A DNA stretch of 64,000 nt from the NCBI GenBank assembly GCA_964607575.1, contig CAZSLS010000002.1:25304-89303 (forward strand), read 5' to 3'. The stretch comes from an uncultured Planctomycetaceae bacterium. GTDB taxonomy: Bacteria; Planctomycetota; Phycisphaerae; SM23-33. The position numbers were made by a program, and so were the translations under genes. Positions 30,613-51,244 of the stretch are shown here, piece by piece. Each line of letters begins with the position of its first letter. Within the stretch, counting starts at the first letter, position 1. The notes below the pieces were generated by a model. The model searched no databases, had not been told where the DNA came from, and saw only the letters and a list, made by a program, of their open reading frames with translations.

Positions 30613-30742
30613 GGGCCTGCCGAGCCCTCCCGAAACGCCGAGTAAGCCCCCCCGACTGCGGGGGGGCTTCTTGGGTTTTCTGCACCGATTGAACCGGCTT
30701 GATGTTCCATAAGAATCCGCATTGACCGAAAGAAGAAGGCAG

Positions 30743-36276: not shown

Positions 36277-37680
36277 TCATTTCCTCTTGACGTCATAACA
36301 ATACAGTTTGTTGAAGTGACGCAGATATAGTTTACCGCCGGCGACGACGGGGTGGGCCCAACTGGTGCCCATGGTGCGTTTGTATTCTTTAGTCCATCCG
36401 GATTTATCGGCAAAACCTTCGGCGAAGAAACGCCCTTTGATCTTGAAGCCCTTGGGGGTGCATTCGCACAGGAGCGTTTCGCCGGCTTCTTCGGCGAAGA
36501 CATAGAACATACCGTCTGCCCAGCAGACCGAACCCTTCGGAATATTCTCGACGTCTTCGTCCAGGTCGTTGGAGTCCCACATGGTCTTGCCCGTTTTGAA
36601 ATCGATACAGGCGAAACCTCTCTTGTTGTTACCGTATAGATAACCCTTGTGCAGGATCATACCGCCGTGATGACAGTCGGCGTCTTTGGTCTCCCATGCC
36701 TTCTTTGCGAAGACCTTTTGACCTTTGGCCTTCATTTTCAGGCAGATCCCGCCCTTACCGTATCCGCATGCCCAGAAGACGTGCCCATCGGAGTAGATCG
36801 GTGTATTGCAGTTGGCCATGTTGCCTTTGGCGAATTCATATTTCCAGAGTCCCTTGCCTGTTTCAGCGTGAACGCCCATGAGTCCCTCGCGGCTGCCGTT
36901 GACGAGCATGGGAACGCCGTCGACATCGCCAAGAATGGTCGAACCGTATTGGCTTTGCCCGTTCGGAGGCGATTTCCACAGCGTCTTGCCCGTCATCTTG
37001 TCTAATGCGACCATAAAGGTCTTCTCGCCGCCGGTGCAGTAGATGGCTTTGTCTTTATAGATCAGGACCGATTCGGCGTAGCCCCAACCGTGTCCGACAA
37101 CACCGCTGTCGAATTCTTTTTCCTGAACCTTGCGCGTCCAGATGCGCTGGAAGGTATCCTTCTTCAGGCACATGATTTCGCCCAGACCGGTGGTGACGTA
37201 CAGGCGATCTTTCTCGATAGTGATGCTGGCGCGCGTGCCCTTGTAGGAGAGGTTTTCGTGGCGGCCGTCGGGATGGATCTTTTCGTAATACGCATTGGCG
37301 ACGTCTTTCGATTGCTTCACTTTGCCCGTGGCGTAGTCGATAGTGGTGACGTAAAAGCCCTGGCCCTTGATCTGCCAAATGTGCTTCGGAGGCGTTTTGT
37401 ATTCGATCTTCTCGTCCGCGTGCGGTTTGCGACCGGTGATGTAGGCCAACCCGCCATCAAGCGTGACGCTCGAGTAGCCATTGCCGATACCTTTGACTTC
37501 CCACAGTTTTTTCGGACCGCCTTTGGGCCAGCTCTTGAGCAGACCGGTATCGGTCGATTTGCTATCGCGGTTCGGACCGCGCCATTGTTTCCAATCGCCC
37601 TCGGCGCCCGGAGACCTGCCGGCGATCAGAACAGCAAACACAACAACCGCCAACGGCGACAACAGACGTACTGACTTCAT
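36277..37680 (-). CDS. Secreted PQQ-like (BamB-like) beta-propeller repeat protein
   Basis: Signal MKSVRLLSPLAVVVFAVLIAG is present. …WKQWRGPNRDS… is the typical opening. Repeated …TGK.LWK… and …TGKTMWDS… blades follow. The start is set at ATG 37680 with GAGGTG 9 nt upstream. Confidence 0.7.
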   Translation of the reverse strand: MKSVRLLSPLAVVVFAVLIAGRSPGAEGDWKQWRGPNRDSKSTDTGLLKSWPKGGPKKLWEVKGIGNGYSSVTLDGGLAYITGRKPHADEKIEYKTPPKHIWQIKGQGFYVTTIDYATGKVKQSKDVANAYYEKIHPDGRHENLSYKGTRASITIEKDRLYVTTGLGEIMCLKKDTFQRIWTRKVQEKEFDSGVVGHGWGYAESVLIYKDKAIYCTGGEKTFMVALDKMTGKTLWKSPPNGQSQYGSTILGDVDGVPMLVNGSREGLMGVHAETGKGLWKYEFAKGNMANCNTPIYSDGHVFWACGYGKGGICLKMKAKGQKVFAKKAWETKDADCHHGGMILHKGYLYGNNKRGFACIDFKTGKTMWDSNDLDEDVENIPKGSVCWADGMFYVFAEEAGETLLCECTPKGFKIKGRFFAEGFADKSGWTKEYKRTMGTSWAHPVVAGGKLYLRHFNKLYCYDVKRK

Positions 37681-37893
37681 AACATACACCTCGTAATAAT
37701 AATACTAGCACAAAACGGACACCTTAATCCACCAAACGCACGGGGCGGTCGGCTCGGTCCCTACCTTAGGGATTCAGTTCGTCGGTACAATGCTTAATTA
37801 TTGGATTGCGGCTACACTGTACGTGATGCTAAGCTGTCTTCATGCTGAGAATAGCGAGAAAGGAGACTCCGGATCAACGGACTTGAACGATAT

Positions 37894-39082: not shown

Positions 39083-40027
39083 ATGACCAGAAAACTAGTA
39101 ATATTCATAGTGTTATTGTCCGCCGCCTTGCTCGGAAGGGCTGCGGACGTACCGAAAAAACAAGTATCCCAATTCAAATCCATCGCAAGAGCCAGCGAGG
39201 ACATTACCGTATCCTCCACCATGCCGGTTCGGGTCTCGAAAGTCTTTGTCAAAGATGGAGACACCGTAAAGCCCGGACAAACACTGGTGCAACTCGACGA
39301 CAAGGCCGAACGCGTTCAGATGGAACAACTGAAAGCACAGGCCGAAGACGAAACGCACCTGGAGGCCGCGGAAGCACAACTCGCCCAGAAGAAAGTCGAT
39401 TACAAACGAATCCAAAATGCCCGGGCCAAGAACGCCGCAACCGCACTGGAACTGGAGCACGCGCGCCTGGAGGTCACGATCTCAGATCTGTCCCTGACGC
39501 TGGCGCGGTTCGAACACACCCAGGACAAACGGAAGTACCTGCAGGCCGAGGCCCAGGTCGATCGATTGAGACTGCGCGTACCTACTTCCGAAAACGATTT
39601 GCCCGGGGACACGTTCAAGGTCTTCAAAGTCTTCGTTTCTCGCGGCGAGTCCGTCGATCGCCTGAAGGAAGTTATCCGGGTCATCAAGATCGATCCGCTC
39701 TGGATCGACGTCCCGGTCCCCGAAGAGATCGTCGGTGCACTGAAACTCAAGGTCGCCCAGAAAGCACGCGTGATCTTCCTCAAGACCAAGACCCTCCCGA
39801 CCGAGGGCAAGATCATCTACATTGCGGATGAGATCGATGCGGCCAGCGGAAAGCAAACGATACGTGTTGAGGTCCCAAATCCCAGCGGAATACCCGCCGG
39901 TAAGAAAGTATTCGTAGAATTTTTACCAAAGGCCCGGTCGACAACCAGACCTGCCGACAAGAAGCAGGCCGCCAATCCCACGGCAGACCGGACAGAAATA
40001 TCGATTAACAGGAAAGGAACGAGTTGA
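39083..40027 (+). CDS. HlyD-family periplasmic adaptor (membrane fusion protein), signal-anchored
   Basis: MTRKLVIFIVLLSAALLGRA is a signal. …VKPGQTLVQLDD… is a biotin-lipoyl hairpin, followed by a long coiled coil (…QMEQLKAQAEDETHLEAAEAQLAQKKVDYKR…) and a beta-barrel-type C-terminus. Confidence 0.75.
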   Translation: MTRKLVIFIVLLSAALLGRAADVPKKQVSQFKSIARASEDITVSSTMPVRVSKVFVKDGDTVKPGQTLVQLDDKAERVQMEQLKAQAEDETHLEAAEAQLAQKKVDYKRIQNARAKNAATALELEHARLEVTISDLSLTLARFEHTQDKRKYLQAEAQVDRLRLRVPTSENDLPGDTFKVFKVFVSRGESVDRLKEVIRVIKIDPLWIDVPVPEEIVGALKLKVAQKARVIFLKTKTLPTEGKIIYIADEIDAASGKQTIRVEVPNPSGIPAGKKVFVEFLPKARSTTRPADKKQAANPTADRTEISINRKGTS

Positions 40028-40398
40028 TGGCCAAAGACACCCCCGAACCGGCACAAGACGCCCCACAGGCGGCGCCTGAAGCAGCACCCGAAGGTCAGGA
40101 ACAGCAGACGATCCGAGTTCGCATGGACCAGCGGGATGTAAAAACCAGCTACGCAAACGCGTTCAACACGCACGGGCTTATCAACGAGGTCATCCTTGAC
40201 TTCGGACTGAACACGCCCGTTCCACCCCAACCCGATCAACCGCCGGAAATCATGCTGCAGATCACCGACCGGATCATCCTGAACTACTACTCCGCCAAAC
40301 GCCTCGCCCTTACGCTCGGGCAGTTGGTCAGGCGACATGAAGAACGATTCGGAGAACTGGAACTGGATGACAGCAAGCGGGTCAAGAGCGACCAGTAG
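40027..40398 (+). CDS. DUF3467-like small protein
   Basis: This is a 123-aa protein. …YANAFNTHGLINEVILDFGLN… matches the DUF3467 core motif. It has a Pro/Ala-rich acidic N-terminus. Its start overlaps the upstream stop (TGATG). Confidence 0.55.
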   Translation: MAKDTPEPAQDAPQAAPEAAPEGQEQQTIRVRMDQRDVKTSYANAFNTHGLINEVILDFGLNTPVPPQPDQPPEIMLQITDRIILNYYSAKRLALTLGQLVRRHEERFGELELDDSKRVKSDQ

Positions 40399-40424
40399 CC
40401 TTCCGAACCGGAGACTCATCCCTG

Positions 40425-42452
40425 ATGCCCCCAGACAACGTGGAAAGCTCCAGACCGCAGCCACAGCCGCATGACGGTCAACTGCCTACATTGGCTGAAC
40501 TCTTCGAACAGCTAAGCCGCTATGACGGCCCGGTGGAGGGTTTTCTTGCGCACCTCGTGCAAACCCAATGCCAGGCCGCCGACGCCAGGGGCGGTGCGAT
40601 ACTGCGAATCTCCCCGGACGGGCGCCCACAGGTTCTGGCGGTATACCCCCCCGCCGAGCCGGGATCAACGCCTCCGGTCTGGTTGGCGCGCGCCGCTGAG
40701 ATCGCGCCGCAGGTAGCGGCGGGAGGCGCCACCGATGTCAGGGCGCTGCACGATCCCGACGATCTCTACGGCCAGCCCGCGCGGAGCCACCTGGCGCTGG
40801 TGCCTTTGACCGGCGGGCAGGGAGCCAGGGGATTGGCTGCGTACGTACTCGAAAAAGGCGACGATGAAGCCGTTTTCGCCGCACGAATCGAACGCCTCGA
40901 GCTTACCATCGTCCTGATGGGGCTCCACGAAATGCGCCTCTCGCTGCAAAGACGAAATAACGATCTTGCGAGGCTCAGGGTCTCCATGGACACCCTGGCA
41001 GCAACTAACGAACACGAGAAGTTCACCGCCTCGGTCATGTCGCTCTGCAACGAAATGGCGTCAACCTGGAAGTGCGAGAGAGTCAGCCTCGGAGTACTGA
41101 AGGGGCGATACGTTCAGGTCAGCGCCGTCAGCGGTACCGAAAAAATCAACCGCAAGATGAAACTGGTCCAGGACATCGAAGCGACTATGGAAGAGGCGCT
41201 GGACCAGGATATCGAAGTGATCCTGCCCGCATCTCCAGAGGCGACCTATGTCAGCCGCGGCGCATCGGAACTCTCCCGCAGGCACGGGCCCTCGGCAATC
41301 GTCTCGCTACCGCTCAGGCGAGAGGGCAAGGGCGTCGGTGTAGTCACGCTGGAGAAGTCCGCCGACAATCCGTTTACCGCCGAACAGATCGAAGCTCTGC
41401 GATTGACCTGCGAACTGGCCACCCCCAGGATTATGGACCTGTTCAAGACCGACCGCTGGTTCGGGGCTAAGGCCGCCCGGACCGTGCGCGGCGGACTGGG
41501 CGTAGTTGTTGGCGCCAAACACACGTGGCTGAAGATGATCGCCATACTCGTATCCGCTTTCCTGGTATTTGCGATCCTGTTCAAGGGAGACTACACCGCC
41601 GGCGGTAGCATGACCCTCCAGGTGAGAACCCAGCACGTTATTCCCGCACCGTTCGAAGGGGTCCTCAAGAGTGTACACGTGGAAGTCAACGAGAGGATCG
41701 TCGGCGAAGGGGCGCCAGGCGTGACGATCCTGGCGGAAATGGACACCGCCGAACTGCGGGAGCGCCTCGCTGCAGCGCAAGCCGAACGCAGCCGGGCGAG
41801 AAATCAGGCGGAGCAGGCCAGGAATGAAGGCAAACAGGTTCAGGTCCAGATTGCAGAGAATGACGTCCAGAAAGCCGACGCCAATATCCGCCTCCTCCAG
41901 CAGCGTATTGCCCTGGCTTCGATCAAGTCGCCCATATCCGGTACGGTCATCAGCGGAGACCTCAAGAGGCATCTTGGGCGGCGCTACGAACTGGGTAAGG
42001 AGCTTTTCCAGATCGCCAAGATCGAGAACATGCGCGCCGAAGTGCTCGTGGGCGAAGACCAGATCGCCGAAGTAATAGAGAAATATGGTCCCAGTTGCAG
42101 GAAACGCAACAAAATCCAACAGGAACTCGACAATCTTGGCAACGAAAATCCCGACAGACGCCGGAAACTCGAAAACCAGATCGCCGAACTCGACAAGGAC
42201 GTAGGAGGCCGCCTAGCCGCGCTGGGGCACGCGGGGAGGCATTTTGATTTTGTAGTCGAACGAATCACACCGGTCGCCAGACCCTCGGAAGGGAAAAACG
42301 TCTTTCCGATTCGCGTCAAACTGCTCCAGACCTCCCAGTGGATGCGACCGGGCATGACCGGCGTGGCGGAGGTAGATATCGATCGCCGCCCGTACGCCTA
42401 CATCTGGACGCGCCGGTTGGTTAACTGGATCCGGATGAAGTTGTGGTTGTAG
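40425..42452 (+). CDS. GAF-GAF-TM-HlyD fusion: cytoplasmic tandem GAF-like sensor domains joined by one TM helix to a periplasmic membrane-fusion (HlyD-family) domain
   Basis: The first ~350 aa carry two GAF-like units (…GGAILRISPDGRPQVLAVYP…LALVPL…GLAAYVLEKG… and …CERVSLGVLKGRYVQVSAVSG…AIVSLPLRREGKGVGVVTLEK…). The TM is HTWLKMIAILVSAFLVFAILF. Then comes …VLKSVHVEVNERIVGEG…, a coiled coil (…ELRERLAAAQAERSRARNQAEQARNEGKQ…) and …IKSPISGTVISGDLK…. Confidence 0.65.
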   Translation: MPPDNVESSRPQPQPHDGQLPTLAELFEQLSRYDGPVEGFLAHLVQTQCQAADARGGAILRISPDGRPQVLAVYPPAEPGSTPPVWLARAAEIAPQVAAGGATDVRALHDPDDLYGQPARSHLALVPLTGGQGARGLAAYVLEKGDDEAVFAARIERLELTIVLMGLHEMRLSLQRRNNDLARLRVSMDTLAATNEHEKFTASVMSLCNEMASTWKCERVSLGVLKGRYVQVSAVSGTEKINRKMKLVQDIEATMEEALDQDIEVILPASPEATYVSRGASELSRRHGPSAIVSLPLRREGKGVGVVTLEKSADNPFTAEQIEALRLTCELATPRIMDLFKTDRWFGAKAARTVRGGLGVVVGAKHTWLKMIAILVSAFLVFAILFKGDYTAGGSMTLQVRTQHVIPAPFEGVLKSVHVEVNERIVGEGAPGVTILAEMDTAELRERLAAAQAERSRARNQAEQARNEGKQVQVQIAENDVQKADANIRLLQQRIALASIKSPISGTVISGDLKRHLGRRYELGKELFQIAKIENMRAEVLVGEDQIAEVIEKYGPSCRKRNKIQQELDNLGNENPDRRRKLENQIAELDKDVGGRLAALGHAGRHFDFVVERITPVARPSEGKNVFPIRVKLLQTSQWMRPGMTGVAEVDIDRRPYAYIWTRRLVNWIRMKLWL

Positions 42453-42464
42453 GAGACGCATATC

Positions 42465-44729
42465 ATGCCAATCGACCGCCCCACATTCAGTGAATCGTGG
42501 TATCGCGTCGCTTCGTTGCGACCGCGCCTGCGGTCGTCGGTCCAGGTATTCCGCCAGCACTTCCGCGGGCAGATGTGGCATGTCCTGCAGGACCCGGGAT
42601 CCAACCAGTTCTTCCGACTGAACGACACGGGCTATCATTTTGTCGGTCTGCTCGACGGGCGGCGAACGGTTGCGGAAGTCTGGAACGTGTGCAACGAACA
42701 ACTCGGCGACGCGGCGCCGACCCAGGGCGAAGCGATCGCACTGCTGGGGCAGTTGTACACCTCCAACCTGCTCCAGGCGGATGTACCACCGGATGCCCAG
42801 GGCCTGTTTCGGCGTTACCGACAGCGAGTGGGACGGGAAGTAAGGGGATACCTCACGAACCTCCTGTTCATCCGGATACCCCTGATCGACCCCGACAGAT
42901 TCCTCGAACGATGGGTTGGTGTATTCGGCGCGATATTCAGCATAGTCGGCTTGATATGCTGGTTGATCCTGATGTCGGTAGGCGCCTACTTCCTGCTCGG
43001 GCGGACCAGCGAACTGGGCAACCAGGCCATGGGCGTCCTGATGACCGCAAACCTGCCCCTGCTGGCGATAAGTTTCTGGATTGTCAAGATCATCCACGAA
43101 TTCGGGCATGGTTTTGCGTGCAAGAAGTTCGGGCTACAGGCCGGCGGAGGTGAGGTCCATACGATGGGCATCATGTTCCTGATCTTCATGCCCCTGCCCT
43201 ACGTCGACGCGTCAAGCGCCTGGGCGTTTCGGAGCAAGTGGCATCGCGTGGCGGTCGGAGGCGCCGGGATGTTCTGCGAACTGGCGATCGCGGCGGTTGC
43301 GGCGATTGTGTGGGCAAGTGTCGGTGAGGGCATGGTCCAGGCGCTGGCGTATAACTGCATGTTCATCGCCTCGGTGACAACGCTTCTGTTCAACGCCAAT
43401 CCGCTGCTGAGGTATGACGGGTACTACATCCTCTCGGATCTGCTGGAGATACCCAACTTCGCCCAGCGGTCCAAAAGCTACCTGTACTACCTGGTCAAGC
43501 GATACATATGGGCCGTACGCAATCCCAGGAACCCCGCAAACACTTCCGGCGAAAAAGCATGGTTCGTATTCTACGGGATCGCCTCGACTATCTACCGCCT
43601 GTTCATCCTGGTCGTGATCCTGATGTTCCTGTCCGACCGCCTTCCGGAGGAACTCAAGTTCATAGCCACCATCGCCGCGGCGGTATCCGGAGCCGTCTGG
43701 TTGTGTACTCCGATATTCAAGTTCCTCAAGTACCTGGCGACCAGCGGCGAACTTTCCCGCGTTCGAGGCCGCGCGGTAACCTCAACGCTGCTGACGGTGA
43801 CAAGCATCATCCTGCTCGTTGGCGTCATACCCTGGCCCGACCGCGTACGCGCCGAAGGTGTTGTCGAACCGCTCGGACTGGTAGTCGTGTACACTCGAAC
43901 CGACGGATACGTTGCAAACTTCCTCCCCTCGGGAACGCCGGTGGGCGCCCGGGACGTGCTCATAAACGCCGTACCGCCTACCGACGACCCGCGGCAGCGA
44001 AACCGGTTCTTCGATAGTCTGAACACTGAACTGACCGCCACACAGCAGATCCTGGAAGCCGAATACGCCAAGATAAAATGGCAGGAAGATTGGGCTCTCG
44101 CCGAAAACGAACACGCAATCGTAGCCTCGAGAATCGAAGAGGCAAAAGCCAAAGCAGAGCAGATCCATCGGGTCAGGAACGATATCAGAAACCTGACGAT
44201 CCGATCGCCGATAAAGGGTGTGTGGATATCCCCCGACGTTGACCGCCTCAAGGGCAATTTCGTGCAAAAGGGTCAGCAAATCGGACTGGTCGCCAACCGG
44301 GAACCCGAAAACCTGGTTGTCCGGGCGGTAGCATCGCAGGAGATCGGGGCGCTTCTTTACGAACTTCACAACAGGAAAAACCACACGATCCCCGTCGAAA
44401 TCCGCATACAAGGACGTCCCGCCCCGGCATTCACGGGCAAGATAATCAAGATCCTCGACTCCGCACAGGACGTCCTGCCCTCCCCGGCGCTGGGATACGC
44501 CGTAGGCGGACCGATTGTCACTCGCTCCGACGACCGCCAGGGCCTGATGGCCGCCGAGGGCTTCTTCGAAATACACGTTACCCCACAGACCGATGATTCC
44601 GGCGACCCGGACGGAGGGGTCCTGCTGCTCCCGGGACAGCGAGTGGTGGTGCGTTTCGACATGCCGTCAAAACCGCTCGTCGCCCAGTGGTGGCGGTCAC
44701 TACTGCAACTGCTTCAGAGAAAACAATAA
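42465..44729 (+). CDS. RRE/PqqD-like N-domain + M50-type (site-2-protease-like) intramembrane zinc metalloprotease + C-terminal HlyD-like domain
   Basis: GGAG sits 10 nt upstream. The N-terminus …VQVFRQHFRGQMWHVLQDPGSNQFFRLNDTGYHFVGLLDGRRTVAEVW… is PqqD/RRE-like. HEFGH lies in a TM helix (…FWIVKIIHEFGHGFACKKFG…). At least five more helices follow. The C-terminus …IRSPIKGVWISPD…KGQQIGLV… is a membrane-fusion beta-barrel/lipoyl region. Confidence 0.7.
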   Translation: MPIDRPTFSESWYRVASLRPRLRSSVQVFRQHFRGQMWHVLQDPGSNQFFRLNDTGYHFVGLLDGRRTVAEVWNVCNEQLGDAAPTQGEAIALLGQLYTSNLLQADVPPDAQGLFRRYRQRVGREVRGYLTNLLFIRIPLIDPDRFLERWVGVFGAIFSIVGLICWLILMSVGAYFLLGRTSELGNQAMGVLMTANLPLLAISFWIVKIIHEFGHGFACKKFGLQAGGGEVHTMGIMFLIFMPLPYVDASSAWAFRSKWHRVAVGGAGMFCELAIAAVAAIVWASVGEGMVQALAYNCMFIASVTTLLFNANPLLRYDGYYILSDLLEIPNFAQRSKSYLYYLVKRYIWAVRNPRNPANTSGEKAWFVFYGIASTIYRLFILVVILMFLSDRLPEELKFIATIAAAVSGAVWLCTPIFKFLKYLATSGELSRVRGRAVTSTLLTVTSIILLVGVIPWPDRVRAEGVVEPLGLVVVYTRTDGYVANFLPSGTPVGARDVLINAVPPTDDPRQRNRFFDSLNTELTATQQILEAEYAKIKWQEDWALAENEHAIVASRIEEAKAKAEQIHRVRNDIRNLTIRSPIKGVWISPDVDRLKGNFVQKGQQIGLVANREPENLVVRAVASQEIGALLYELHNRKNHTIPVEIRIQGRPAPAFTGKIIKILDSAQDVLPSPALGYAVGGPIVTRSDDRQGLMAAEGFFEIHVTPQTDDSGDPDGGVLLLPGQRVVVRFDMPSKPLVAQWWRSLLQLLQRKQ

Positions 44730-44772
44730 CCGGAGTCCGCAATTGAACGAGGTCGCCAGCACAACCTGGCGG

Positions 44773-46743
44773 ATGTTGGCGCAGCGAACGGGCGGTCGAG
44801 AACTGCCTCGCGGACTCGATGCGGCATGGGACGCCGCGGCGGGTATGGCCCAGAAACTCCTTCCGCGAACCGCAAGATTCCTCCGCCAGGCCGACGTGGT
44901 ATTGGGCTACGAGAAGCATTTCGCAATGATGACCGCGGCGAAACTCCGCACCCATGCCGCGGAGTTCCGCGACCTCTTCCGACTGGGACGCAATACATCT
45001 GACGATCTCCTGAAGGCCTTCGCACTCGTCCGCGAGGTCGCCGCCAGGCAGATCGGCCTGAAAGCTTACAGGGTACAGGTCGCCGGGGCACTTGCCCTGT
45101 ACGCAGGATGCATTGTCGAAATGGCCACCGGCGAGGGAAAGACACTCGCCGCAACCATGCCCGCAACCGTTGCCGGATGGTGTGGAAAAGGATGCCACGT
45201 CATCACCGTAAACGACTATCTCGCCAAACGAGACGCCGAGGAAATGGGCCCGATCTACCGCTTCTGCGGACTGAAGGTCAACCATATCGATCAGGAAACA
45301 CCGCCCCCGCAGCGCCGCGAAGCATACCACGCCGACATCACATACTGCACCAACAAGGAAGTCACCGCCGATTACCTGCGAGATCGCCTGGCCATGGGAC
45401 GCTTGAGGGGGCTTTCGTCGGCGTTGCTGGCACGCATCGCCGAGGGCACCCAGAGCGGGACCGATCGAGTAGTACAACGCGGTCTGAACTACGCGATCAT
45501 CGATGAAGCCGACTCGGTGCTGATAGACGAAGGCGTCACGCCGCTGATCATCTCGGGAGAGGCGCCCAATACCGAGCAGGTACAAGCATTTCAGCAGGCG
45601 GCGGGCATCGCCGGGCAAATGCAGGATGGCGTCCACTACCGGGTTAACTTCAAGTATCGCGAGGTCAACCTCACCAAGGACGGAAAAGCCTTCGCAGCCG
45701 AACTGACCGCCGAACTGGGAGGCATATGGGCCGGACAGCGGAGAAGCGAGGAATTGATCGTCCAGGCACTGACGGCACGGGAAATGTTCCTGATCGACAA
45801 GCAGTACGTTATCCAGGAAGACAAGGTCGTGATCGTCGACGACTTCACCGGGCGGCTCATGCCCGACCGCGAATGGCGAGACGGGCTGCACCAGGCGGTA
45901 TCCGCCAAAGAAAACGTCGAAGTACAACCGCCAAAAGACACCTACGCGCGGATGAGTTTCCAGAGATTCTTCAGGATGTATCGACGCCTGTCAGGCATGA
46001 CCGGAACCGCGGTCGAAGCCACTGGAGAATTCTGGCAGTTCTACCACACGCCGGTGGTGGTCGTTCCGACCAACGAACCCTGCATACGCAAGCAACTGCC
46101 CTCCCGCGTCTACGCCTCCCAAACCGCCAAGTGGCACGCCGTCATCGATGAAATCACGCGCGTCCACGAGAAAGGCCAGCCCATTCTCGTCGGCACGCGC
46201 AGCGTCCGCGACAGCGAAAAAATCTCCGCACTGCTCACGGAACTCGAACTGGAACATGAAGTACTCAACGCCGTCAGGCACGCTGAAGAAGCCCAAATCG
46301 TAGCCCAGGCCGGGCAAGGCGGACGAATTACCGTGGCGACCAACATGGCCGGACGCGGTACCGACATCAAACTCGGTCGCGGTGTGGCCGATCTCGGCGG
46401 CTTGTACGTCCTGGCCACCGACCGCCAGGAGTCCGGGCGGATCGACAGACAACTCGCCGGACGGTCCGGACGGATGGGCGACCCGGGCCTGGCGCGCAGA
46501 TTCGTGAGCCTCGAAGACGATCTGCCCAAGCGCTACGCGTTGAAGATGGCGAAATTCCTGCGCAAACGCCACCGCGATGGCGATGAGAGAATCGCCCGAG
46601 ACATCGCCGGACCGCTAACCAGACGCCTCTTCAACCGCGCGCAGCGACGAGCCGAACATACCGCTTTCAAGCAGCGGCGCGCCGTCCTGCGCACCGACCA
46701 CTGGCTCGACGAGTACCTGGGCTTCGCCGGAATCGAGCGATAA
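44773..46743 (+). CDS. SecA-like motor ATPase lacking the C-terminal third (NBD1-PPXD-NBD2 retained; most of HSD and all of HWD/CTL absent)
   Basis: …MATGEGKTLAATMPA… is Walker A. …HVITVNDYLAKRDAEEMGPIYRFCGLKV… is the SecA signature. …ITYCTNKEVTADYLRD… and …AIIDEADSVLIDE… (DEAD) are present. …MTGTAVEATGEFWQFYH…VVVPTNEPCIRKQLPSRVY…GQPILVGTRSV…TVATNMAGRGTDIKLG…LATDRQESGRIDRQLAGRSGRMGDPG… follows. The protein ends about 60 aa after motif VI. An alternative in-frame TTG start lies at 44743. Confidence 0.75.
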   Translation: MLAQRTGGRELPRGLDAAWDAAAGMAQKLLPRTARFLRQADVVLGYEKHFAMMTAAKLRTHAAEFRDLFRLGRNTSDDLLKAFALVREVAARQIGLKAYRVQVAGALALYAGCIVEMATGEGKTLAATMPATVAGWCGKGCHVITVNDYLAKRDAEEMGPIYRFCGLKVNHIDQETPPPQRREAYHADITYCTNKEVTADYLRDRLAMGRLRGLSSALLARIAEGTQSGTDRVVQRGLNYAIIDEADSVLIDEGVTPLIISGEAPNTEQVQAFQQAAGIAGQMQDGVHYRVNFKYREVNLTKDGKAFAAELTAELGGIWAGQRRSEELIVQALTAREMFLIDKQYVIQEDKVVIVDDFTGRLMPDREWRDGLHQAVSAKENVEVQPPKDTYARMSFQRFFRMYRRLSGMTGTAVEATGEFWQFYHTPVVVVPTNEPCIRKQLPSRVYASQTAKWHAVIDEITRVHEKGQPILVGTRSVRDSEKISALLTELELEHEVLNAVRHAEEAQIVAQAGQGGRITVATNMAGRGTDIKLGRGVADLGGLYVLATDRQESGRIDRQLAGRSGRMGDPGLARRFVSLEDDLPKRYALKMAKFLRKRHRDGDERIARDIAGPLTRRLFNRAQRRAEHTAFKQRRAVLRTDHWLDEYLGFAGIER

Positions 46744-47330
46744 TGGCCCCGGCACGCCCATTTGAGCTGGTCATCTTCGACATGGATGGAACGCTGATCG
46801 AGCAGATGCTCGACTTTGAGGGTATACGTAAGCACCTTGGGATCCGCCCGAACGAGGGCATACTCGAAGGAATCGCAAACATGCCGCCCGATCGGCGGAC
46901 CCAGGCCGAACACTGGCTCGTGCGAACCGAACACCTGATCGCCCAAAACGCTCGTCTCATGCCCGGAGCCATTGAAACTCTGGCGGCGATCCGCAACGCG
47001 AATATCCAAACCGCCCTGTTGACCAGAAACACGCGAGCATCGATGCAAACGGTCCTAGAGAAGTTCGACCTCCGGTTCGACCTGGCCTGGTCGCGAGAAG
47101 ACGGACCGATCAAGCCCGAGCCCGACAGCGTCCTGAAGGCGTGCGAGACGCTCGGCGTCGCCCCGGGACAAACCGCGTGCATAGGCGATTTTGAATACGA
47201 TATCGTCGCCGCCAACGCCGCCGGCGCCGTTAGCATCCTCCTGGTCCCGGACTCCAGACCCCCATTCGCCGATACCGCCGATCGCGTCATAATCAAACTG
47301 TCTGAACTACCCGCCCTGCTGGGAATCTGA
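46743..47330 (+). CDS. HAD-superfamily hydrolase (phosphatase-like, subfamily IA type)
   Basis: Motif I is VIFDMDGTLIE. …LLTRNT… and …CIGDFEYDIVAANAAGA… are motifs II-IV. The start overlaps the SecA-like stop (TAATG). Confidence 0.7.
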   Translation: MAPARPFELVIFDMDGTLIEQMLDFEGIRKHLGIRPNEGILEGIANMPPDRRTQAEHWLVRTEHLIAQNARLMPGAIETLAAIRNANIQTALLTRNTRASMQTVLEKFDLRFDLAWSREDGPIKPEPDSVLKACETLGVAPGQTACIGDFEYDIVAANAAGAVSILLVPDSRPPFADTADRVIIKLSELPALLGI

Positions 47331-47430: not shown

Positions 47431-49005
47431 ATGAAATCCGCTTTCATATTTGCTGCCCTTGTCGCACTGCTTTCGTCGGCCCGCGCCGGGGAAAACGACT
47501 GGCCTCAATGGGGGCGAACCGACGACCGCAATATGGTCTCAGACCAGAAGAACCTCCCCGATCTCGGTAAGGGGAAAATCGCTTTCAAGAACGCTAAATG
47601 GGACATTCGCTGGACCGTCAAGCTCGGATCGCTGTGCTACGGGAACCCGACCGTCTCAGGCGGAAAAGTTTTCATCGGCACAAACGATCGGTTCTGGTCC
47701 GATCCTCGCGCCAAGCGAAACCGAGGCGGGCTGCTGCTGTGCATTGACGACGTCACGGGCAAAGTGCTGTGGCGCCTGCTCGTACCGCGATACAAGAAGA
47801 AGGTCTACGGCAGCGGATTCGACGACCTGAATGTCGGGGTCTGCTCGGCGGTAACCGTCGAGGGCGACAAGGCGTACGTTGTAAGCAACCGCGCCGAAGT
47901 ACTCTGCCTCGATGTCAACGGGCAGGCCAACGGTAATGACGGGCCGTATCGCGGCGAAGGTAAGTATATCGCCGGGCCCGCCAAGCCGCCGGTAAAACTC
48001 TACCGCGGCGACGGCGATATCATCTGGCGATTCGACATGATCGGCGGCCTGGAAAACGCACCGCACGATGCGACGAACTGCAACATCCTGATCCACGGAG
48101 ACCTGCTGTACGTCAACACGGGCAACGGCGTCCATCGCATGCCCGACGAGCCCATGCCCAAACCCGATGCGCCAACTCTGATCGTGCTGAACAAGAAGAC
48201 CGGCAAGCTGGTGGCCCAGGACGGATGCAGAATCGGTCACCGAACGTTCCACGGTAACTGGTCGTCGCCGTCGCTGGGCAAGGTCGGAGGCAAGGAGCAG
48301 ATCTTCTTCGGCGGCGGAGACGGCGTCCTCTACGCATTTGCGCCCCCGAAGGTGAATCCCAAAGCCGACAAGCCGGTGGTCTTTAAATCCGTCTGGAAGT
48401 ACGACTGCAATCCCAAGGGCTACAAAGTCGACGCCGACGGTGAGGAACTCGACTATTGGGACGGTGACGCATCCCGCGCCGAGGTGACCAAGAGCTACAA
48501 GGGGCAGAGCGAAATAATCGCCACGCCCGTCTTCTACAAGAACCGCGTTTACGTGGCCATCGGACGTGATCCCGAACACGGAATCGCACGGGGAATGCTC
48601 CACTGCATCGACGCGACGAAAACCGGCGACGTAACCAAGGCCGCTCGCATCTGGTCGTACGACAAGATAGCACGCACAATGTCGACGGTCGCCATCGCCG
48701 ACGGGCTGCTCTACATCTCCGACTACGCGGGGTTAGTCCACTGTCTCGACGCCGAAACGGGCAAGGTCTGCTGGGTCCACAACACCGGCGAGCGGATATG
48801 GAGTTCGACCCTGGTCGCCGACGGGAAGGTGTACGTAGGCACGGAGAAGAAGCACCTCTTCATATTCAAGGCCGGCCGCAAAAAGCAGCTCGTCGCGACG
48901 ATCAGGATGCCATACAAAATCTCGACCACGCCGATAGTGGCCAATGGATGTATCTACGTTCCCACCGCCCGGTGCCTCTACGCGGTCGGCAAGCTGAAGA
49001 AGTAA
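47431..49005 (+). CDS. Secreted PQQ-like (BamB-like) beta-propeller repeat protein
   Basis: Signal MKSAFIFAALVALLSSARAG is present. …DWPQWGRTDDRNM…, …TGKVLWRL…, …TGKLVAQD… and …TGKVCWVH… blades follow. Confidence 0.7.
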   Translation: MKSAFIFAALVALLSSARAGENDWPQWGRTDDRNMVSDQKNLPDLGKGKIAFKNAKWDIRWTVKLGSLCYGNPTVSGGKVFIGTNDRFWSDPRAKRNRGGLLLCIDDVTGKVLWRLLVPRYKKKVYGSGFDDLNVGVCSAVTVEGDKAYVVSNRAEVLCLDVNGQANGNDGPYRGEGKYIAGPAKPPVKLYRGDGDIIWRFDMIGGLENAPHDATNCNILIHGDLLYVNTGNGVHRMPDEPMPKPDAPTLIVLNKKTGKLVAQDGCRIGHRTFHGNWSSPSLGKVGGKEQIFFGGGDGVLYAFAPPKVNPKADKPVVFKSVWKYDCNPKGYKVDADGEELDYWDGDASRAEVTKSYKGQSEIIATPVFYKNRVYVAIGRDPEHGIARGMLHCIDATKTGDVTKAARIWSYDKIARTMSTVAIADGLLYISDYAGLVHCLDAETGKVCWVHNTGERIWSSTLVADGKVYVGTEKKHLFIFKAGRKKQLVATIRMPYKISTTPIVANGCIYVPTARCLYAVGKLKK

Positions 49006-49023: not shown

Positions 49024-50811
49024 ATGCGGCTGACTATTGCAACGATCGTTCTGGGGATCACTCTGAGCGCTTGCAGCGCCGCGGACGTCGATCCGTCAAC
49101 CGTGCTGTCAACGCTCGACAAATCTCACCCGCGCCTGATGCTCAAGGACGCCGACTTGCAGAAGCTCAAGATCCGCTGCAAGTCGGATCCGATCCTGCAA
49201 AAGTGCGTCGCCGACGTTATCAAATACGCCGACGCATGCCTGAGAAAACGCCCGCTGGTCTACAAGAAGATCGGCCCGCGCCTGCTGAACGTCTCGCGCG
49301 ATTGCCTGAGGCGAACGTACGCGTTGGCGCTAACGTGGCGGTGGACCGGCGAGAAGAAGTACGCCGACCAGGCGATAAAGAACATCGTAACTGTATGCGC
49401 ATTCAAGGACTGGAACCCGTCGCACTTCCTCGACACCGCCGAAATGTCGCACGCTGTGGGCATCGGGTACGATTGGCTTTATTCACACCTCGACGAAGCG
49501 ACTCGCAAGAAGATCCGCGAGGGCTTGATAAAGAACGGACTGGCCGTCGGAGTCGCCGGTTACGAGAAGAAACACTGGTGGTCCAGGTCCTCGCACAACT
49601 GGAACCAGGTCTGCAACGGCGGCCTGGTGACCGGCGCGTTGGCGATCGCGGAGACCGATCCGAAGTACGCCCGGGCGATAATCCCAGCCGCCGTCAAGTC
49701 ACTCCCGCGTGCGATCAAGACGTACGGGCCGGACGGAGGATGGTCCGAGGGTCCGGCGTATTGGCATTACGCGACGCGATACACCGCATACGGGCTGGCG
49801 GCGATGGACTCGGCGCTGGGCACGGACTTCGGCCTGTCGAAGATCTCCGGGCTGTCCGAGGCCGGACTGTTTCCGGTCTACACCACCGGGCCGACGGGGA
49901 TGTACGTCAACTTCGCCGACTCCGGTACGCGGGCGCGCCGAGGGCCCATGGGATGCATGTTTTACCTGGCCCGCAAGTTCAAGCGCCCTTTCATCTCCGA
50001 TGCCGAGCACGCCATGATCGCCAAACGCTCAGCGACGGCGGAACACGTGATGTGGTACGTTCCGCCCTCGGGCAAGAAGGAGACCCGCGACCTCGACCGC
50101 CTGTTCCGCGGACCGGTTCCCGTCGCACTATTCCGCAGCTCCTGGGGAGACCCGAACGAACTGTTCGTCAGCATCAAGGCCGGATACAACCAGGTGAACC
50201 ACGGACACCTCGATCTGGGCGCCTTCGAACTCGACGCGCTCGGCGTGAGATGGGCTCGCGACCTGGGCTCGGACAACTACAATCTGCGCGGCTACTGGGA
50301 CAGCCGCCGCGACACCAGCAGACGATGGAAATACTATCGCCTGAACTCGCTGAGTCACAGCGTACCGCTCATAAACGGAGCCAATCAATCCGCGGCGGGA
50401 ACGTCGTCGATCCTGAAGTTCGAACCGGGCAGGGTCGTAATCGACTTCACCAGCGCCTACAAGAAGGCGGCATCCAAAGCGACTCGCGAGTTGAAGATTA
50501 CGGACAATCGCAAGAGTGTGATCGTCCGGGACGACTTCGAACTGATCGGCGACAAGGGCGTCGAGATCACCTGGGCGATGACAACCGACGCGAAGATCAC
50601 CGTCAAGAGCAAGACCATCGCGGAACTCACCCTCGACGGTAAGAAACTGTCAGCCGAATTACTCTCACCGTCCGGCGCGGAGTTCTCCGTCGAATCGGCA
50701 GAGCAGAAACCGCCCCAAAAGGCCAACAAAGGCGTATCGCGCCTACTGGCGAAAGTAAAGAACGCCAAGGGCAAGGTTCGGATATCAATCCGCCTGGCGC
50801 CGAAATGGTAG
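49024..50811 (+). CDS. Heparinase II/III-like (polysaccharide-lyase-like) lipoprotein
   Basis: Lipobox …LGITLSACS. …HPRLMLKDADLQKLK…, …WNQVCNGGLVTGALAIAE…, …GGWSEGPAYWHYATRY… and …NHGHLDLGAFELDALGVRWARDLG… are typical of the alginate-lyase/heparinase II/III fold. Confidence 0.6.
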   Translation: MRLTIATIVLGITLSACSAADVDPSTVLSTLDKSHPRLMLKDADLQKLKIRCKSDPILQKCVADVIKYADACLRKRPLVYKKIGPRLLNVSRDCLRRTYALALTWRWTGEKKYADQAIKNIVTVCAFKDWNPSHFLDTAEMSHAVGIGYDWLYSHLDEATRKKIREGLIKNGLAVGVAGYEKKHWWSRSSHNWNQVCNGGLVTGALAIAETDPKYARAIIPAAVKSLPRAIKTYGPDGGWSEGPAYWHYATRYTAYGLAAMDSALGTDFGLSKISGLSEAGLFPVYTTGPTGMYVNFADSGTRARRGPMGCMFYLARKFKRPFISDAEHAMIAKRSATAEHVMWYVPPSGKKETRDLDRLFRGPVPVALFRSSWGDPNELFVSIKAGYNQVNHGHLDLGAFELDALGVRWARDLGSDNYNLRGYWDSRRDTSRRWKYYRLNSLSHSVPLINGANQSAAGTSSILKFEPGRVVIDFTSAYKKAASKATRELKITDNRKSVIVRDDFELIGDKGVEITWAMTTDAKITVKSKTIAELTLDGKKLSAELLSPSGAEFSVESAEQKPPQKANKGVSRLLAKVKNAKGKVRISIRLAPKW

Positions 50812-50815
50812 ACCG

Positions 50816-51244
50816 ATGATCCGCATAACGCCCGATATCTCGATCGAGGCGAACCTGATCACCATGGACTTCGTCCGCGCCTCGGGTCCGGGCGGGCAGA
50901 ACGTTAACAAGGTCGCCACCGCCGTCCAACTCCGCTTCGACGCCGCCAATTGCGCCGCCCTGACCGCCGCGGTCCGCACACGCCTGAAAAAACTCGCCGG
51001 ACGAAGAATGACCGCCGCCGGTATCCTCATAATAGACGCCCGCCGCCACGCCAACCAGGAACGCAACCGCACCGACGCGATGGCGAGACTAACCGAACTC
51101 ATCGCCAAAGCCGCCGTCAGACCCAAACCCCGCCGCAAAACCAGACCAACGCTGGCCTCCAAGAAACGCCGCCTCGAATCCAAACGTCAAAGAGGCGAAA
51201 CAAAAAAACTCCGCCGCTCCATCCGCCGAGACGAACAGTCCTGA
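50816..51244 (+). CDS. arfB: Alternative ribosome-rescue factor B (peptidyl-tRNA hydrolase ArfB/YaeJ)
   Basis: This is a 142-aa protein with …RASGPGGQNVNKVATAV… (GGQ motif) and a Lys/Arg-rich C-terminal tail. Confidence 0.85.
   Translation: MIRITPDISIEANLITMDFVRASGPGGQNVNKVATAVQLRFDAANCAALTAAVRTRLKKLAGRRMTAAGILIIDARRHANQERNRTDAMARLTELIAKAAVRPKPRRKTRPTLASKKRRLESKRQRGETKKLRRSIRRDEQS

Follow-up and report, generated by a model that had tools for sequence, protein, structure and literature searches.

A truncated SecA paralog, an M50 protease and HlyD-type adaptors in a Phycisphaerae operon: a candidate export machine for giant LEPR-XLL surface proteins

Introduction

What could a SecA-type motor, an intramembrane protease and periplasmic adaptors be doing together in a single operon? 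The question is raised by six genes located in a 64-kb stretch of Phycisphaerae DNA (the window, i.e., the whole of the sequence analyzed), which an earlier note had read as a candidate undescribed system for export and processing across the envelope. Here we describe the genes, their recurrence in other genomes and the proteins encoded beside them, and weigh the functions that they may have.

Gene content of the operon

The six ORFs proposed in the earlier note were recovered at the same coordinates, all of them co-directional and tightly packed:

39083..40027, + strand: g1, periplasmic adaptor of the HlyD/RND_mfp type, whose N-terminus has a signal or anchor segment at residues 5-23 (hydropathy)
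40027..40398, + strand: g2, cytoplasmic DUF3467 protein (Pfam DUF3467, E = 2e-13)
40425..42452, + strand: g3, GAF sensor, one TM segment and periplasmic HlyD-type adaptor (Pfam, hydropathy)
42465..44729, + strand: g4, PqqD-like RRE, M50 membrane domain and periplasmic adaptor domain (Pfam, alignment, AF2, Foldseek)
44773..46743, + strand: g5, truncated SecA paralog, 656 aa from the ATG at 44773 (alternative TTG start at 44743; Pfam, structure alignment)
46743..47330, + strand: g6, HAD-IA phosphatase (Pfam Hydrolase 3.5e-21, HAD_2 2.8e-19)

The coupling between them is evident from a TGATG overlap at the g1/g2 junction (40025-40029), a TAATG overlap at g5/g6 (46741-46745) and gaps of 26 nt (g2-g3), 12 nt (g3-g4) and 13 or 43 nt (g4-g5, depending on the start chosen), and no terminator-like site was found on the + strand inside the block. 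As had been noted, the operon is devoid of ABC, RND or TolC genes, in line with all the evidence gathered, and neither TolC, SapC nor a further HlyD gene was found in the whole window.

Nearly all the domains assigned in the earlier note were recovered (HlyD, DUF3467, GAF-TM-HlyD, PqqD/RRE-M50-HlyD, SecA without its C-terminal third and HAD), the exception being the second GAF domain of g3. This protein has a single cytoplasmic GAF (residues 206-332, nt 41040-41420; Pfam GAF_2 8e-8, GAF 1.5e-5), the TM segment (residues 368-386, nt 41526-41582, by hydropathy) and an adaptor region matching HlyD_3 and HlyD_D23 (both ca. 1e-7), and its first 200 residues had no match in Pfam. The adaptor g1 matches HlyD_D23 (2.5e-13) and HlyD_3 (3.6e-10), and scores 83.8 bits against the NCBIfam RND_mfp model, under the cut-off of 94.9. 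The small protein g2 starts with 25 disordered residues, after which come four strands and a long helix.

The fusion proposed for g4 was upheld, in part through its relatives. The RRE (residues ca. 20-103, nt 42522-42773) is detected as PqqD (2.2e-7). The M50/site-2-protease-type membrane domain, with about seven TM segments by hydropathy, has a weak Peptidase_M50 score here (9.5e-4) but is matched in 26 of 30 members of the family (PqqD in 17, HlyD in 16). Its HExxH motif is HEFGH (residues 211-215, nt 43095-43109) and its NxxPxxxxDG motif NANPLLRYDG (residues 310-319, nt 43392-43421), with H211, E212, H215, N310, N312, P313 and D318 invariant over 30 sequences with identities down to 33%. 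The periplasmic adaptor domain (residues 456-754, nt 43830-44726) was not detected as HlyD by Pfam in this protein; the assignment comes from the relatives and from an AF2 (AlphaFold) model (pLDDT 77.5), whose N-terminal domain has three strands and three helices and whose C-terminal one is an alpha-hairpin plus barrel. Foldseek matched the model to MexA, MacA, AcrA and EmrA (E = 1e-11 to 1e-8), with target-normalized TM-scores of 0.5-0.68 for the first three (E ca. 1e-11). The predicted topology makes the RRE and the GAF cytoplasmic and the adaptor domains periplasmic. When clustered at 50%, the family of g4 has 11,467 representatives.

The PqqD/RRE domain of g4 and its similarity to the daptide and YydH/LiaK epipeptide M50 leader peptidases could also indicate a small-peptide (RiPP or bacteriocin-like) exporter with its leader peptidase, in which, as in a peptidase-containing ABC transporter, the RRE would bind a short precursor, which the M50 domain would cleave and the adaptors and TolC carry out of the cell. 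We consider this quite improbable, as the NCBIfam scores are well under the cut-offs (160.6 bits vs. 300 for daptide_HExxH, and well below the 225 of the YydH/LiaK model), over 82 loci the surroundings of the module showed no recurrent small ORF of precursor type and no recurrent modification gene (radical-SAM or other), and the neighbor that does recur is a giant LEPR-XLL protein (see below).

Recurrence and previous description of the module

The recurrence that the earlier note had put forward as a check was found in at least eight phylum-level groups. The order GAF-HlyD, M50-HlyD, SecA-like is present in Planctomycetota, Verrucomicrobiota, Lentisphaeria, Desulfobacterota, Alpha-, Beta- and Gammaproteobacteria, Nitrospira, Fibrobacter, Flavobacteriales and Spirochaetota. 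The same gene order in dozens of loci from so many phyla takes the arrangement far beyond chance. A GAF-HlyD gene (g3 homolog) is found in 67 of the 70 loci whose sequence extends 2.5 kb or more upstream of the g4 homolog, and a g1 homolog in 43 of 51 related loci having both flanks, on the upstream side in PVC bacteria and on the downstream side in Proteobacteria and Nitrospira. The g2 gene is a facultative member. A TolC/OEP gene adjoins the module in 16 loci and two plasmids, and SapC is inside or beside it in six genome loci and two plasmids. There are also variants lacking the SecA-like gene (in Thalassospira and locus L068) that keep the cargo, DUF3467, GAF-HlyD, M50, HlyD and TolC; the gene is missing from loci L027, L073 and L079 as well. 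Therefore, the motor is either not universally required or replaceable.

The system had, however, been described before, contrary to what the earlier note supposed. Kamneva, Poudel & Ward (PLoS One 2015, 10:e0129066, PMC4452313) reported by comparative genomics a “secondary SecA_DEAD” locus with four core proteins, i.e., a SecA_DEAD protein without SecA_SW, an M50-like/HlyD, a GAF/HlyD and a HlyD/biotin-lipoyl protein, giving as examples META1p2399-2402 of M. extorquens AM1, SPO2713-2718 of R. pomeroyi and PSMK_16490/16500 of Phycisphaera mikurensis. They proposed a type I-like system in which the SecA_DEAD protein takes the place of the ABC ATPase. In their supplement, cluster 4 is SapC and cluster 5 a small, unnamed hypothetical protein that sits where DUF3467 lies, and both clusters fit the present loci. 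Genes g1-g5 are a Phycisphaerae copy of this module; the four core proteins and the taxa are the same and there is no essential difference, the HAD gene being specific to the lineage of the window. The PqqD/RRE domain, the DUF3467 name, any cargo and the LEPR-XLL motif are not mentioned in that paper. We found no experimental study of the module in the literature, the only expression data being the M. extorquens AM1 microarray re-analyzed by the same authors, where the GAF gene was expressed and the other module genes were low or off.

The SecA-like protein and the HAD phosphatase

The description of g5 as a SecA motor-domain paralog without its C-terminal third holds: Pfam detects SecA_DEAD (2.9e-100), SecA_PP_bind (1.1e-25) and P-loop_SecA (1e-56), and has no match for SecA_SW. 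In the alignment to Bacillus subtilis SecA, which covers chain positions 28-606 in 3jv2_A, a construct of 783 residues, and residues 26-603 in 3iqy_A, whose chain has 841, g5 retains NBD1, NBD2 and the preprotein cross-linking domain and extends into the scaffold helix, of which the start is kept. Missing are the helical wing domain, two-helix finger and C-terminal tail. The ATPase motifs are kept (Walker A GEGKT, DEAD and GRSGRMGDPG). Every NCBIfam SecA and SecA2 model scores g5 under its cut-off (e.g., TIGR00963, 630 vs. 800).

Apart from g5 no secA was seen in the 64 kb of the window, as would be expected if this gene were the housekeeping secA lying by chance beside an ordinary pair of efflux adaptors. 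The truncation, the scores under every SecA equivalog cut-off and the recurrence of the neighborhood across phyla (the SecA-like gene is present in 60 of the 66 loci that extend 2.5 kb or more downstream of the g4 homolog) effectively refute this reading, to which we give next to no chance. Besides, genomes with the paralog also have a canonical SecA (PMC4452313), and a transposon mutant in the “SecA2” of Ruegeria pomeroyi (SPO2713) is viable, with a fitness defect in co-culture (PMC10041152), indicating that the paralog is not the housekeeping SecA.

The sixth gene has the HAD fold and is translationally coupled here, as had been claimed, but it does not belong to the module. Downstream of the SecA-like gene, a HAD gene was found only in locus L001, from the same organism, and was missing in L002, L003 and the remaining loci; among the 51 loci with both flanks there was a single one, unrelated and on the opposite strand. 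Hence g6 is a lineage-specific passenger and not a conserved part of the module.

Linkage to giant LEPR-XLL proteins

An indication of what the module may handle comes from its neighbors. In the eight annotated alphaproteobacterial plasmids (8/8) a giant co-directional adhesin-like gene was found directly upstream of the module; the annotated products have 4,033, 8,148, 8,847, 10,518, 10,603 and 12,918 aa, and in two further plasmids the open frame is unannotated, with a length of no less than 2,546 and 3,323 aa. Among the genome loci, about 22-25 of 82 have a giant adjacent to the module. The repeats found in these proteins are RTX, cadherin, He_PIG, Big_9, PKD and DUF4347. Seven of eight N-termini tested scored above the cut-off of the NCBIfam model NF012209 (LEPR-XLL) and the eighth had the variant LEARLLFSAD; the motif was also found in Mesorhizobium and Methylosinus. 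The signal consists of a basic tract followed by (L/F)E.LEPR.LLSAD, and the leader region has no TM-like segment.

The linkage also holds in the opposite direction. Searching with a DNA pattern for the LEPR-XLL motif alone we retrieved 80 metagenome loci, in all of which (80/80) the motif was close to the start of a long ORF, and a core module gene was present in 12 of the 36 loci having 2.5 kb or more of upstream sequence and in 7 of the 17 having 5 kb or more. This two-way genomic linkage indicates that the module most likely handles LEPR-XLL giants. The adjacency of the giants, the presence of LEPR-XLL on them and the retrieval of the module from the motif are new relative to the literature found. 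Truncated SecA domains have been tied independently to giant proteins in Omnitrophota (bioRxiv 10.1101/2023.11.21.568195). The likely cargo had not been foreseen in the earlier note. Within the 64-kb window no LEPR-XLL ORF was found (best score 6.8 bits) and most of the nearest Phycisphaerae loci also lack an adjacent giant, so that for this organism the cargo is assumed.

The M50 motifs are conserved and GAF is a sensor domain, features that would also suit regulated intramembrane proteolysis, with a site-2-protease type enzyme and a GAF sensor cutting a membrane regulator and the adaptors serving an unrelated efflux. This is very improbable: a conserved anti-sigma/sigma gene pair was not found nearby, the protease is itself fused to an adaptor domain and an RRE, and the SecA-like, TolC and giant cargo genes tightly linked to it speak for transport.

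A possible export mechanism

We think it probable that the module is an envelope-spanning machine without ABC transporter that recognizes, processes and exports giant surface proteins with an N-terminal LEPR-XLL signal. Domain architectures and module conservation are established, as are the predicted topology and the two-way linkage to the LEPR-XLL giants, and from them the following mechanism can be inferred. The PqqD-like domain of g4 would bind the LEPR-XLL leader in the cytoplasm, possibly helped by the DUF3467 protein g2, and the M50 active site would remove or trim it at the inner membrane, both by analogy to RiPP systems. The g5 motor, with its intact ATPase motifs and preprotein clamp, would feed the unfolded giant polypeptide, N-terminus first. 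The HlyD-type periplasmic domains of g1, g3 and g4 may join into a tunnel of mixed adaptors that leads to a TolC-type outer-membrane channel, whose gene is beside the module in some genomes and would be elsewhere in the genome of this organism. The GAF domain of g3 may gate the system on a cytoplasmic ligand. A point against this mechanism is that M50 domains are not known to serve as protein channels, as an inner-membrane conduit would have to.

RTX repeats are typical of type I substrates with a C-terminal signal, and their presence in many of the adjacent giants makes an unlinked ABC exporter possible. The giant would then be exported C-terminus first by a classical type I system, and the module would hold the LEPR-XLL end at the inner membrane by means of the RRE and the adaptor tunnel until M50 cleavage upon a GAF signal freed it, resembling the control of LapA by LapG/LapD. 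Response-regulator GGDEF-EAL genes near the module in nine loci, the sensor nature of GAF and the persistence of cargo, M50, adaptors and TolC in the variants without SecA-like gene would fit such retention and release. However, no ABC exporter was found beside those cargo-module units with both flanks open to inspection (e.g., none flanks that of Pseudosulfitobacter), three adaptor proteins plus TolC are the inventory of a conduit, and a SecA-type ATPase with a preprotein clamp, so widespread among the loci, would have no role. We therefore regard this alternative as rather unlikely. Export and processing across the envelope by a dedicated SecA paralog, an intramembrane protease and a GAF sensor, as the earlier note had suggested, is consistent with all the findings.

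Comparison with known systems

Among the closest parallels are the type I systems for giant adhesins and RTX proteins (HlyBD-TolC, LapBCE/LapA and SiiCDF/SiiE), which share with the module the periplasmic adaptor(s), the TolC-type channel and a giant repeat-rich cargo (often RTX or Ig-like) encoded beside the apparatus and without a classical Sec signal peptide. The module differs in having a SecA-type motor instead of an ABC transporter, an M50 protease and, as adaptors, three distinct proteins of which two carry fused cytoplasmic or membrane modules, and the conserved signal of its linked giants is N-terminal rather than C-terminal.

A dedicated SecA paralog tied to the export of very large surface proteins with unusual N-terminal signals is also found in the Gram-positive SecA2 and SecA2/SecY2 systems (giant serine-rich adhesins, e.g., GspB). 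However, the module has no SecY2 or Asp genes, the SecA2 models of NCBIfam all remain under cut-off, and g5 is truncated after the scaffold helix and found in a diderm adaptor/TolC context. The M50 RiPP leader peptidases with RRE partners (YydH/LiaK, daptide HExxH) have in common the membrane HExxH metalloprotease and the PqqD-like leader-recognition element, but g4 scores under the family cut-offs and is fused to a periplasmic adaptor, precursor and modification genes are lacking, and its likely substrate runs to thousands of residues.

Lastly, giant proteins of Omnitrophota and Actinobacteria contain embedded SecA_DEAD and preprotein-binding domains without scaffold/wing, for which self-export has been proposed (West-Roberts et al., bioRxiv 10.1101/2023.11.21.568195). 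The tie between a truncated SecA motor and giant proteins is the same, although in that case the giant itself contains the SecA domains and no M50, GAF or HlyD module has been described.

Organization of the operon

The six genes named here g1 to g6 are consecutive co-directional ORFs of the plus strand with tight junctions. The earlier note had read them in this way, and the reading was borne out when ORF coordinates, overlaps and gaps were rechecked:

39083-40027, plus strand: g1, HlyD/RND_mfp-type periplasmic adaptor (ORF, profile match)
40027-40398, plus strand: g2, DUF3467 protein (ORF, profile match)
40425-42452, plus strand: g3, GAF-TM-HlyD protein (ORF, profile match)
42465-44729, plus strand: g4, PqqD-like-M50-adaptor protein (ORF, profile match and model)
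44743 or 44773 to 46743, plus strand: g5, SecA paralogue (ORF, profile match)
46743-47330, plus strand: g6, HAD-IA hydrolase (ORF, profile match)

The g1/g2 junction is a TGATG overlap (40025-40029), the g5/g6 junction is a TAATG overlap (46741-46745), and the intergenic gaps from g2 to g5 are 26, 12 and 13 or 43 nt. No terminator-like site was predicted on the plus strand inside the g1-g6 block, nor any sigma-70-like promoter upstream of it, the latter being of little meaning in a planctomycete. JGI contigs 140 and 194 kb long encode proteins identical to those of the window, as does a Phycisphaerae MAG at NCBI.

The arrangement had been taken for an undescribed system. This was wrong because the module was already reported by Kamneva, Poudel and Ward (Kamneva et al., 2015; PMC4452313), who described a conserved locus in which M50-like/HlyD, GAF/HlyD and HlyD/biotin-lipoyl proteins are encoded, at times together with an OEP gene. 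In their proposal the SecA_DEAD protein serves as ATPase in a type I-like system, with the membrane part perhaps provided by the M50 protein. Their S2 Table also lists a SapC cluster and a small “conserved hypothetical” cluster three genes from the SecA gene, the place that DUF3467 occupies, and Phycisphaera mikurensis is among their genomes (PMC4452313). The SecA_DEAD protein of their module lacks all or most of SecA_SW, as does g5, and its M50-like/HlyD, GAF/HlyD and HlyD/biotin-lipoyl neighbors have their counterparts in g4, g3 and g1. The only experimental record of the module that we found in the literature is a fitness-table entry for the “SecA2” of Ruegeria pomeroyi (SPO2713), whose transposon mutant is viable and had a fitness of -0.42 in one co-culture (PMC10041152). 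A Chem Rev 2021 review of tripartite systems does not discuss it. The module is therefore known and experimentally untouched, and the window holds an additional copy, in a Phycisphaerae MAG, with the cargo gene absent from the window. The functional interpretation first given to the operon, a trans-envelope conduit fed by a dedicated SecA paralogue, holds in spirit; its errors concern novelty and the HAD gene.

Several neighboring genes deserve mention in their own right. PQQ_2/beta-propeller genes flank the operon (36277-37689, minus strand; 47431-49005, plus strand), the downstream one with a signal peptide, and neither is conserved beside the module elsewhere. At 30722-34795 (plus strand) there is a 1,357-aa protein with precomputed matches to HZS_alpha (hydrazine synthase alpha-like propeller), HEAT and PD40 repeats, an unusual combination for a Phycisphaerae genome. 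A heparinase II/III-like gene (49024-50811) directly precedes one coding for a 142-aa RF-1 domain protein, an ArfB-like peptidyl-tRNA hydrolase (50816-51244, plus strand).

The protein components

By hydropathy, g1 starts with a hydrophobic signal or anchor, and g2, g5 and g6 have no TM segment. Only part of the GAF-GAF-TM-HlyD architecture attributed to g3 stood: Pfam and hydropathy recovered one GAF domain (residues 206-332), one TM segment (368-386) and a region of HlyD type, and the second GAF domain was rejected, residues 1-200 having no Pfam match. The g2 protein matches DUF3467 (E = 2e-13, Pfam), and in its structure model four strands and a long helix follow a disordered N-terminus. 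No solved structural relative was found for it, and a role as SecB-type chaperone was rejected, as it resembles SecB neither in fold nor in profile. In several phyla DUF3467 accompanies the module facultatively. As its gene is placed between cargo and apparatus (see below), our guess is that it could be a cargo-specific cytoplasmic helper.

The description of g5 as a SecA without its C-terminal third was confirmed. The protein matches SecA_DEAD, SecA_PP_bind and P-loop_SecA in Pfam, with SecA_SW absent, and its alignment to Bacillus subtilis SecA stops early, covering residues 28-606 of the 783-residue construct 3jv2_A (26-603 in the 841-residue chain 3iqy_A); g5 ends about ten residues past the aligned segment. 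It follows that g5 retains the two nucleotide-binding domains, the preprotein clamp and the beginning of the scaffold helix; its ATPase motifs are all preserved (GEGKT, DEAD and GRSGRMGDPG). What lies beyond residue 606 in the established structure of SecA, namely the wing domain, two-helix finger and C-terminal tail, is missing. In this g5 differs from canonical SecA, which has the HWD, the two-helix finger and the tail, and it also scores below the cut-offs of both canonical profiles (630.4 against 800 bits for TIGR00963, 635.2 against 814 for PRK12904) and of all four Gram-positive SecA2 profiles (TIGR03714, TIGR04221, TIGR04397 and NF012136). The aSec type has SecY2/Asp partners, whereas no SecY-like or Asp genes were found near g5. 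The best 120 homologues are all 639-678 aa long with the same shortened architecture, which indirectly favors a place in the secondary PVC/proteobacterial clade of the SecA tree, apart from canonical SecA. No second, canonical secA was found within the 64-kb window.

Public names for these proteins are inconsistent. The SecA paralogue appears as “prepilin peptidase”, “DEAD/DEAH box helicase”, “hypothetical protein” or “preprotein translocase subunit SecA”, and the M50 fusion as “PqqD family peptide modification chaperone”, “site-2 protease family protein”, “biotin/lipoyl-binding protein” or “hypothetical protein”. Cases were seen in several of the related loci compared with the window, labeled L or P (L085 23074-25098, L089 22222-24138, P0113, L088 22177-24138, L090 22127-24112 and L094 12031-14037), and we flag the misannotation as systematic.

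For g4, the PqqD-like and M50 assignments held and the HlyD part had to be recovered indirectly. The N-terminus matches PqqD (E = 2e-7, Pfam) and has an RRE layout of three strands and three helices in the AlphaFold model (pLDDT 77.5). About seven TM segments follow, bearing the two signatures of site-2 proteases (Peptidase M50), i.e., HExxH in a TM helix (HEFGH, residues 211-215) and a downstream NxxPxxxxDG (NANPLLRYDG, 310-319). The Pfam M50 score of g4 is 19.0 bits, under the gathering score of 27.2, and the M50 profile is matched in 26 of 30 relatives; the motif residues are invariant across all 30, at identities down to 33%. The C-terminal 300 residues have no Pfam match, and in 16 of the 30 relatives HlyD_D23 or HlyD_3 was matched. 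In the model, this part consists of a lipoyl-like domain, an alpha-hairpin and a barrel, and the Foldseek comparison with MexA, MacA, AcrA and EmrA gave E = 1e-11 to 1e-8. M50 leader peptidases of the daptide (NF041824, 160.6 against a cut-off of 300) and YydH/LiaK (NF058609, 33.9 against 225) families do not include g4. RiPP precursor peptide or modification enzyme genes were found neither in the window nor as recurrent neighbors of the module: all-against-all clustering of flanking ORFs yielded only shadow ORFs, OEP, GGDEF-EAL regulators, SapC and giant proteins.

Recurrence of the module

The g4 family is very large, with 11,467 representatives (50% clustering level) at E <= 1e-3 and 3,829 at E <= 1e-30, the 150 best matches being mostly full-length (ca. 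690-760 aa). A scan of one genome per species gave at least 563 confirmed loci. The best 80 of these come from Planctomycetota, Verrucomicrobiota, Lentisphaeria, Desulfobacterota, Alpha-, Beta- and Gammaproteobacteria, Nitrospira, Fibrobacter, Flavobacteriales and Spirochaetota. A gene-neighborhood check found the same order in related loci of many phyla.

Components of the module in related loci (the six window proteins searched against six-frame ORFs of 82 loci; the sequence that had to be present is given in brackets)
GAF-HlyD: 67/70 loci (at least 2.5 kb upstream of the g4 homologue)
SecA-like: 60/66 loci (at least 2.5 kb downstream of the g4 homologue)
Separate HlyD adaptor: 43/51 loci (both flanks)
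DUF3467: 13/51 loci (both flanks)
HAD: 1/51 loci, an unrelated gene on the opposite strand (both flanks)

The HAD gene, which had been counted as part of the system, was rejected as a member; not being conserved in the related loci, it is a local passenger. In PVC bacteria the separate HlyD adaptor is encoded upstream, in Proteobacteria and Nitrospira downstream. Sixteen related loci and two plasmids have a TolC/OEP gene beside the module. None was found within the 64-kb window, and TolC may be encoded elsewhere in this organism, as is common. There are also variants without a SecA-like gene (Thalassospira pCSC3H3, i.e., L095, 1-16508, and L068, L073, L079 and L027). In L068, L073 and L079 a HlyD gene directly follows the M50 gene, enlarged in the first two (466-497 aa). 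Both L095 and L068 have an adjoining LEPR-XLL giant, and L095 also retains DUF3467 and TolC.

SapC, otherwise known from the S-layer type I secretion operon of Campylobacter fetus, is encoded in or beside the module in L058 (6962-7777), L072 (9072-9938), L061 (12294-13151), L085 (22260-23081) and L093 (2058-2855). Its gene lies before GAF-HlyD, between GAF-HlyD and M50, between M50 and the SecA-like gene, or divergent from the giant gene; neither SapC nor further adaptor genes were found within the 64-kb window. The locus L013, labeled “uncultured delta proteobacterium”, has a module 47% identical to the g4 of the window and the PVC-type order with the HlyD adaptor upstream; this points to wrong binning, a wrong taxonomic label or a recent transfer.

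Giant LEPR-XLL proteins as candidate cargo

Clustering of flanking ORFs revealed very long co-directional ORFs abutting the module. In all eight alphaproteobacterial plasmids with a true orthologue a giant gene is immediately upstream.

Giant proteins encoded upstream of the module in alphaproteobacterial plasmids
Pseudosulfitobacter: 12,918 aa
Pontibrevibacter: 10,603 aa
Mesorhizobium ciceri: 10,518 aa
Methylosinus: 8,847 aa
Alisedimentitalea: 8,148 aa
Thalassospira: 4,033 aa
Pseudohalocynthiibacter: at least 2,546 aa (open frame, unannotated)
Rhodobacteraceae M382: at least 3,323 aa (open frame, unannotated)

In five of the eight, DUF3467 separates the giant gene from the other module genes, directly before GAF-HlyD in four and with a HlyD adaptor gene intervening in Mesorhizobium; two of the eight units end with TolC. 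Among the 82 genome loci a giant adjoins the module in about 22-25, including L021, L022 and L008 of the window's own class. The repeats found in the giants are RTX, cadherin, He_PIG, Big_9, PKD and DUF4347. A cargo rich in RTX could instead use an unlinked ABC system; in the Pseudosulfitobacter plasmid no ABC exporter flanks the cargo-module unit on either side.

The NCBIfam model NF012209 “LEPR-XLL” was found at the N-terminus in seven of eight giants tested, the eighth having the variant LEARLLFSAD. The consensus is (L/F)E.LEPR.LLSAD, preceded by a basic tract and without a TM-like segment. In the literature searched, the name LEPR-XLL turned up in only two papers, both unrelated, and neither PMC4452313 nor two relevant preprints connect it with the module. 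A cargo gene in the window was searched for with a motif regex and a purpose-built HMM and rejected, as there was no LEPR-XLL ORF (best score 6.8 bits).

The association was also found in the reverse direction. A search with a degenerate DNA pattern for E.LEPR.LLSAD gave 80 metagenome loci, and in all 80 the motif lay in a long, usually truncated ORF, at a median of 49 residues past the preceding stop. A core module gene (SecA-like, M50, GAF-HlyD, DUF3467 or SapC) was present in 12 of the 36 loci with at least 2.5 kb of upstream sequence, in 7 of the 17 with at least 5 kb and in 21 of all 80 (30 of 80 if adaptors and TolC are counted too). These counts are lower bounds because modules located 3' of truncated giants are invisible.

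Annotation of the giants is itself deficient. In the Alisedimentitalea plasmid the LEPR-XLL motif (L093 1725-1878, 21 bits with the purpose-built HMM) is in frame some 15-20 codons upstream of the annotated start of the 8,148-aa “calcium-binding protein”, a start that seems to have been placed too far downstream. The two unannotated frames upstream of the module (L094 1-7640 and L096 1-10207) are absent from the PLSDB gene tables, and one probably crosses the record origin; annotation-based surveys would miss such frames.

Proposed mechanism and comparison with known systems

The RRE domain of g4, the GAF domain of g3, DUF3467 and the SecA paralogue are predicted to be cytoplasmic and the three adaptor domains periplasmic. 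By analogy with RiPP systems, the RRE domain would bind the N-terminal leader of the giant and the M50 site would cleave it. The clamp and ATPase of g5 could then feed the unfolded chain, as those of SecA do, the adaptor domains would bridge to TolC in the manner of tripartite pumps, and the GAF domain of g3 might gate the system. Tentatively, and as a possibility that we would not yet call probable, the module could be a distinct, widespread and ABC-free secretion type of diderms, in which the RRE-M50-adaptor protein reads the LEPR-XLL motif of adhesins of 4,000-13,000 aa and the truncated SecA drives them, N-terminus first, through a tunnel of three adaptors and TolC.

The main rival is a retention-and-release device similar to LapG/LapD. 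Response-regulator GGDEF-EAL genes are located near the module in nine loci (including L013 344-2122), which hints at c-di-GMP control as for LapA-type adhesins, and they fit the export model and a retention-release device alike. If the ABC-free reading is true, the module would be mechanistically a new secretion type, a variant of neither type I nor Sec, in a family with more than 11,000 representatives (50% clustering level) over many phyla. Known by genome comparison since 2015, it had cargo and mechanism unassigned, and what is new here is a candidate cargo and its signal. The linkage to LEPR-XLL found both ways offers a concrete substrate, with LEPR-XLL and the RRE domain as candidate signal and receptor. 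Culturable carriers of the module or of the full cargo-plus-apparatus cassette exist in Ruegeria, Methylobacterium, Mesorhizobium, Methylosinus and Pseudosulfitobacter, so that the question is directly testable. For the window itself the result is more modest, one more copy of the module with no cargo gene in the window.

To our knowledge, how bacteria carry proteins of ca. 10,000 residues over two membranes is understood for just two routes, ABC-driven type I systems and Gram-positive SecA2/SecY2. Compared with a classical type I system, the membrane fusion protein is matched by the three adaptor-type domains of g1, g3 and g4. The TolC-family factor was not found in the window and adjoins the module in the 16 related loci and two plasmids. 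The energizer differs: the ABC transporter of HlyB type is found neither in the operon, as had been remarked from the start, nor among the ORFs recurring beside the module. Classical type I substrates carry an uncleaved C-terminal signal; the conserved motif found in the giants is N-terminal.
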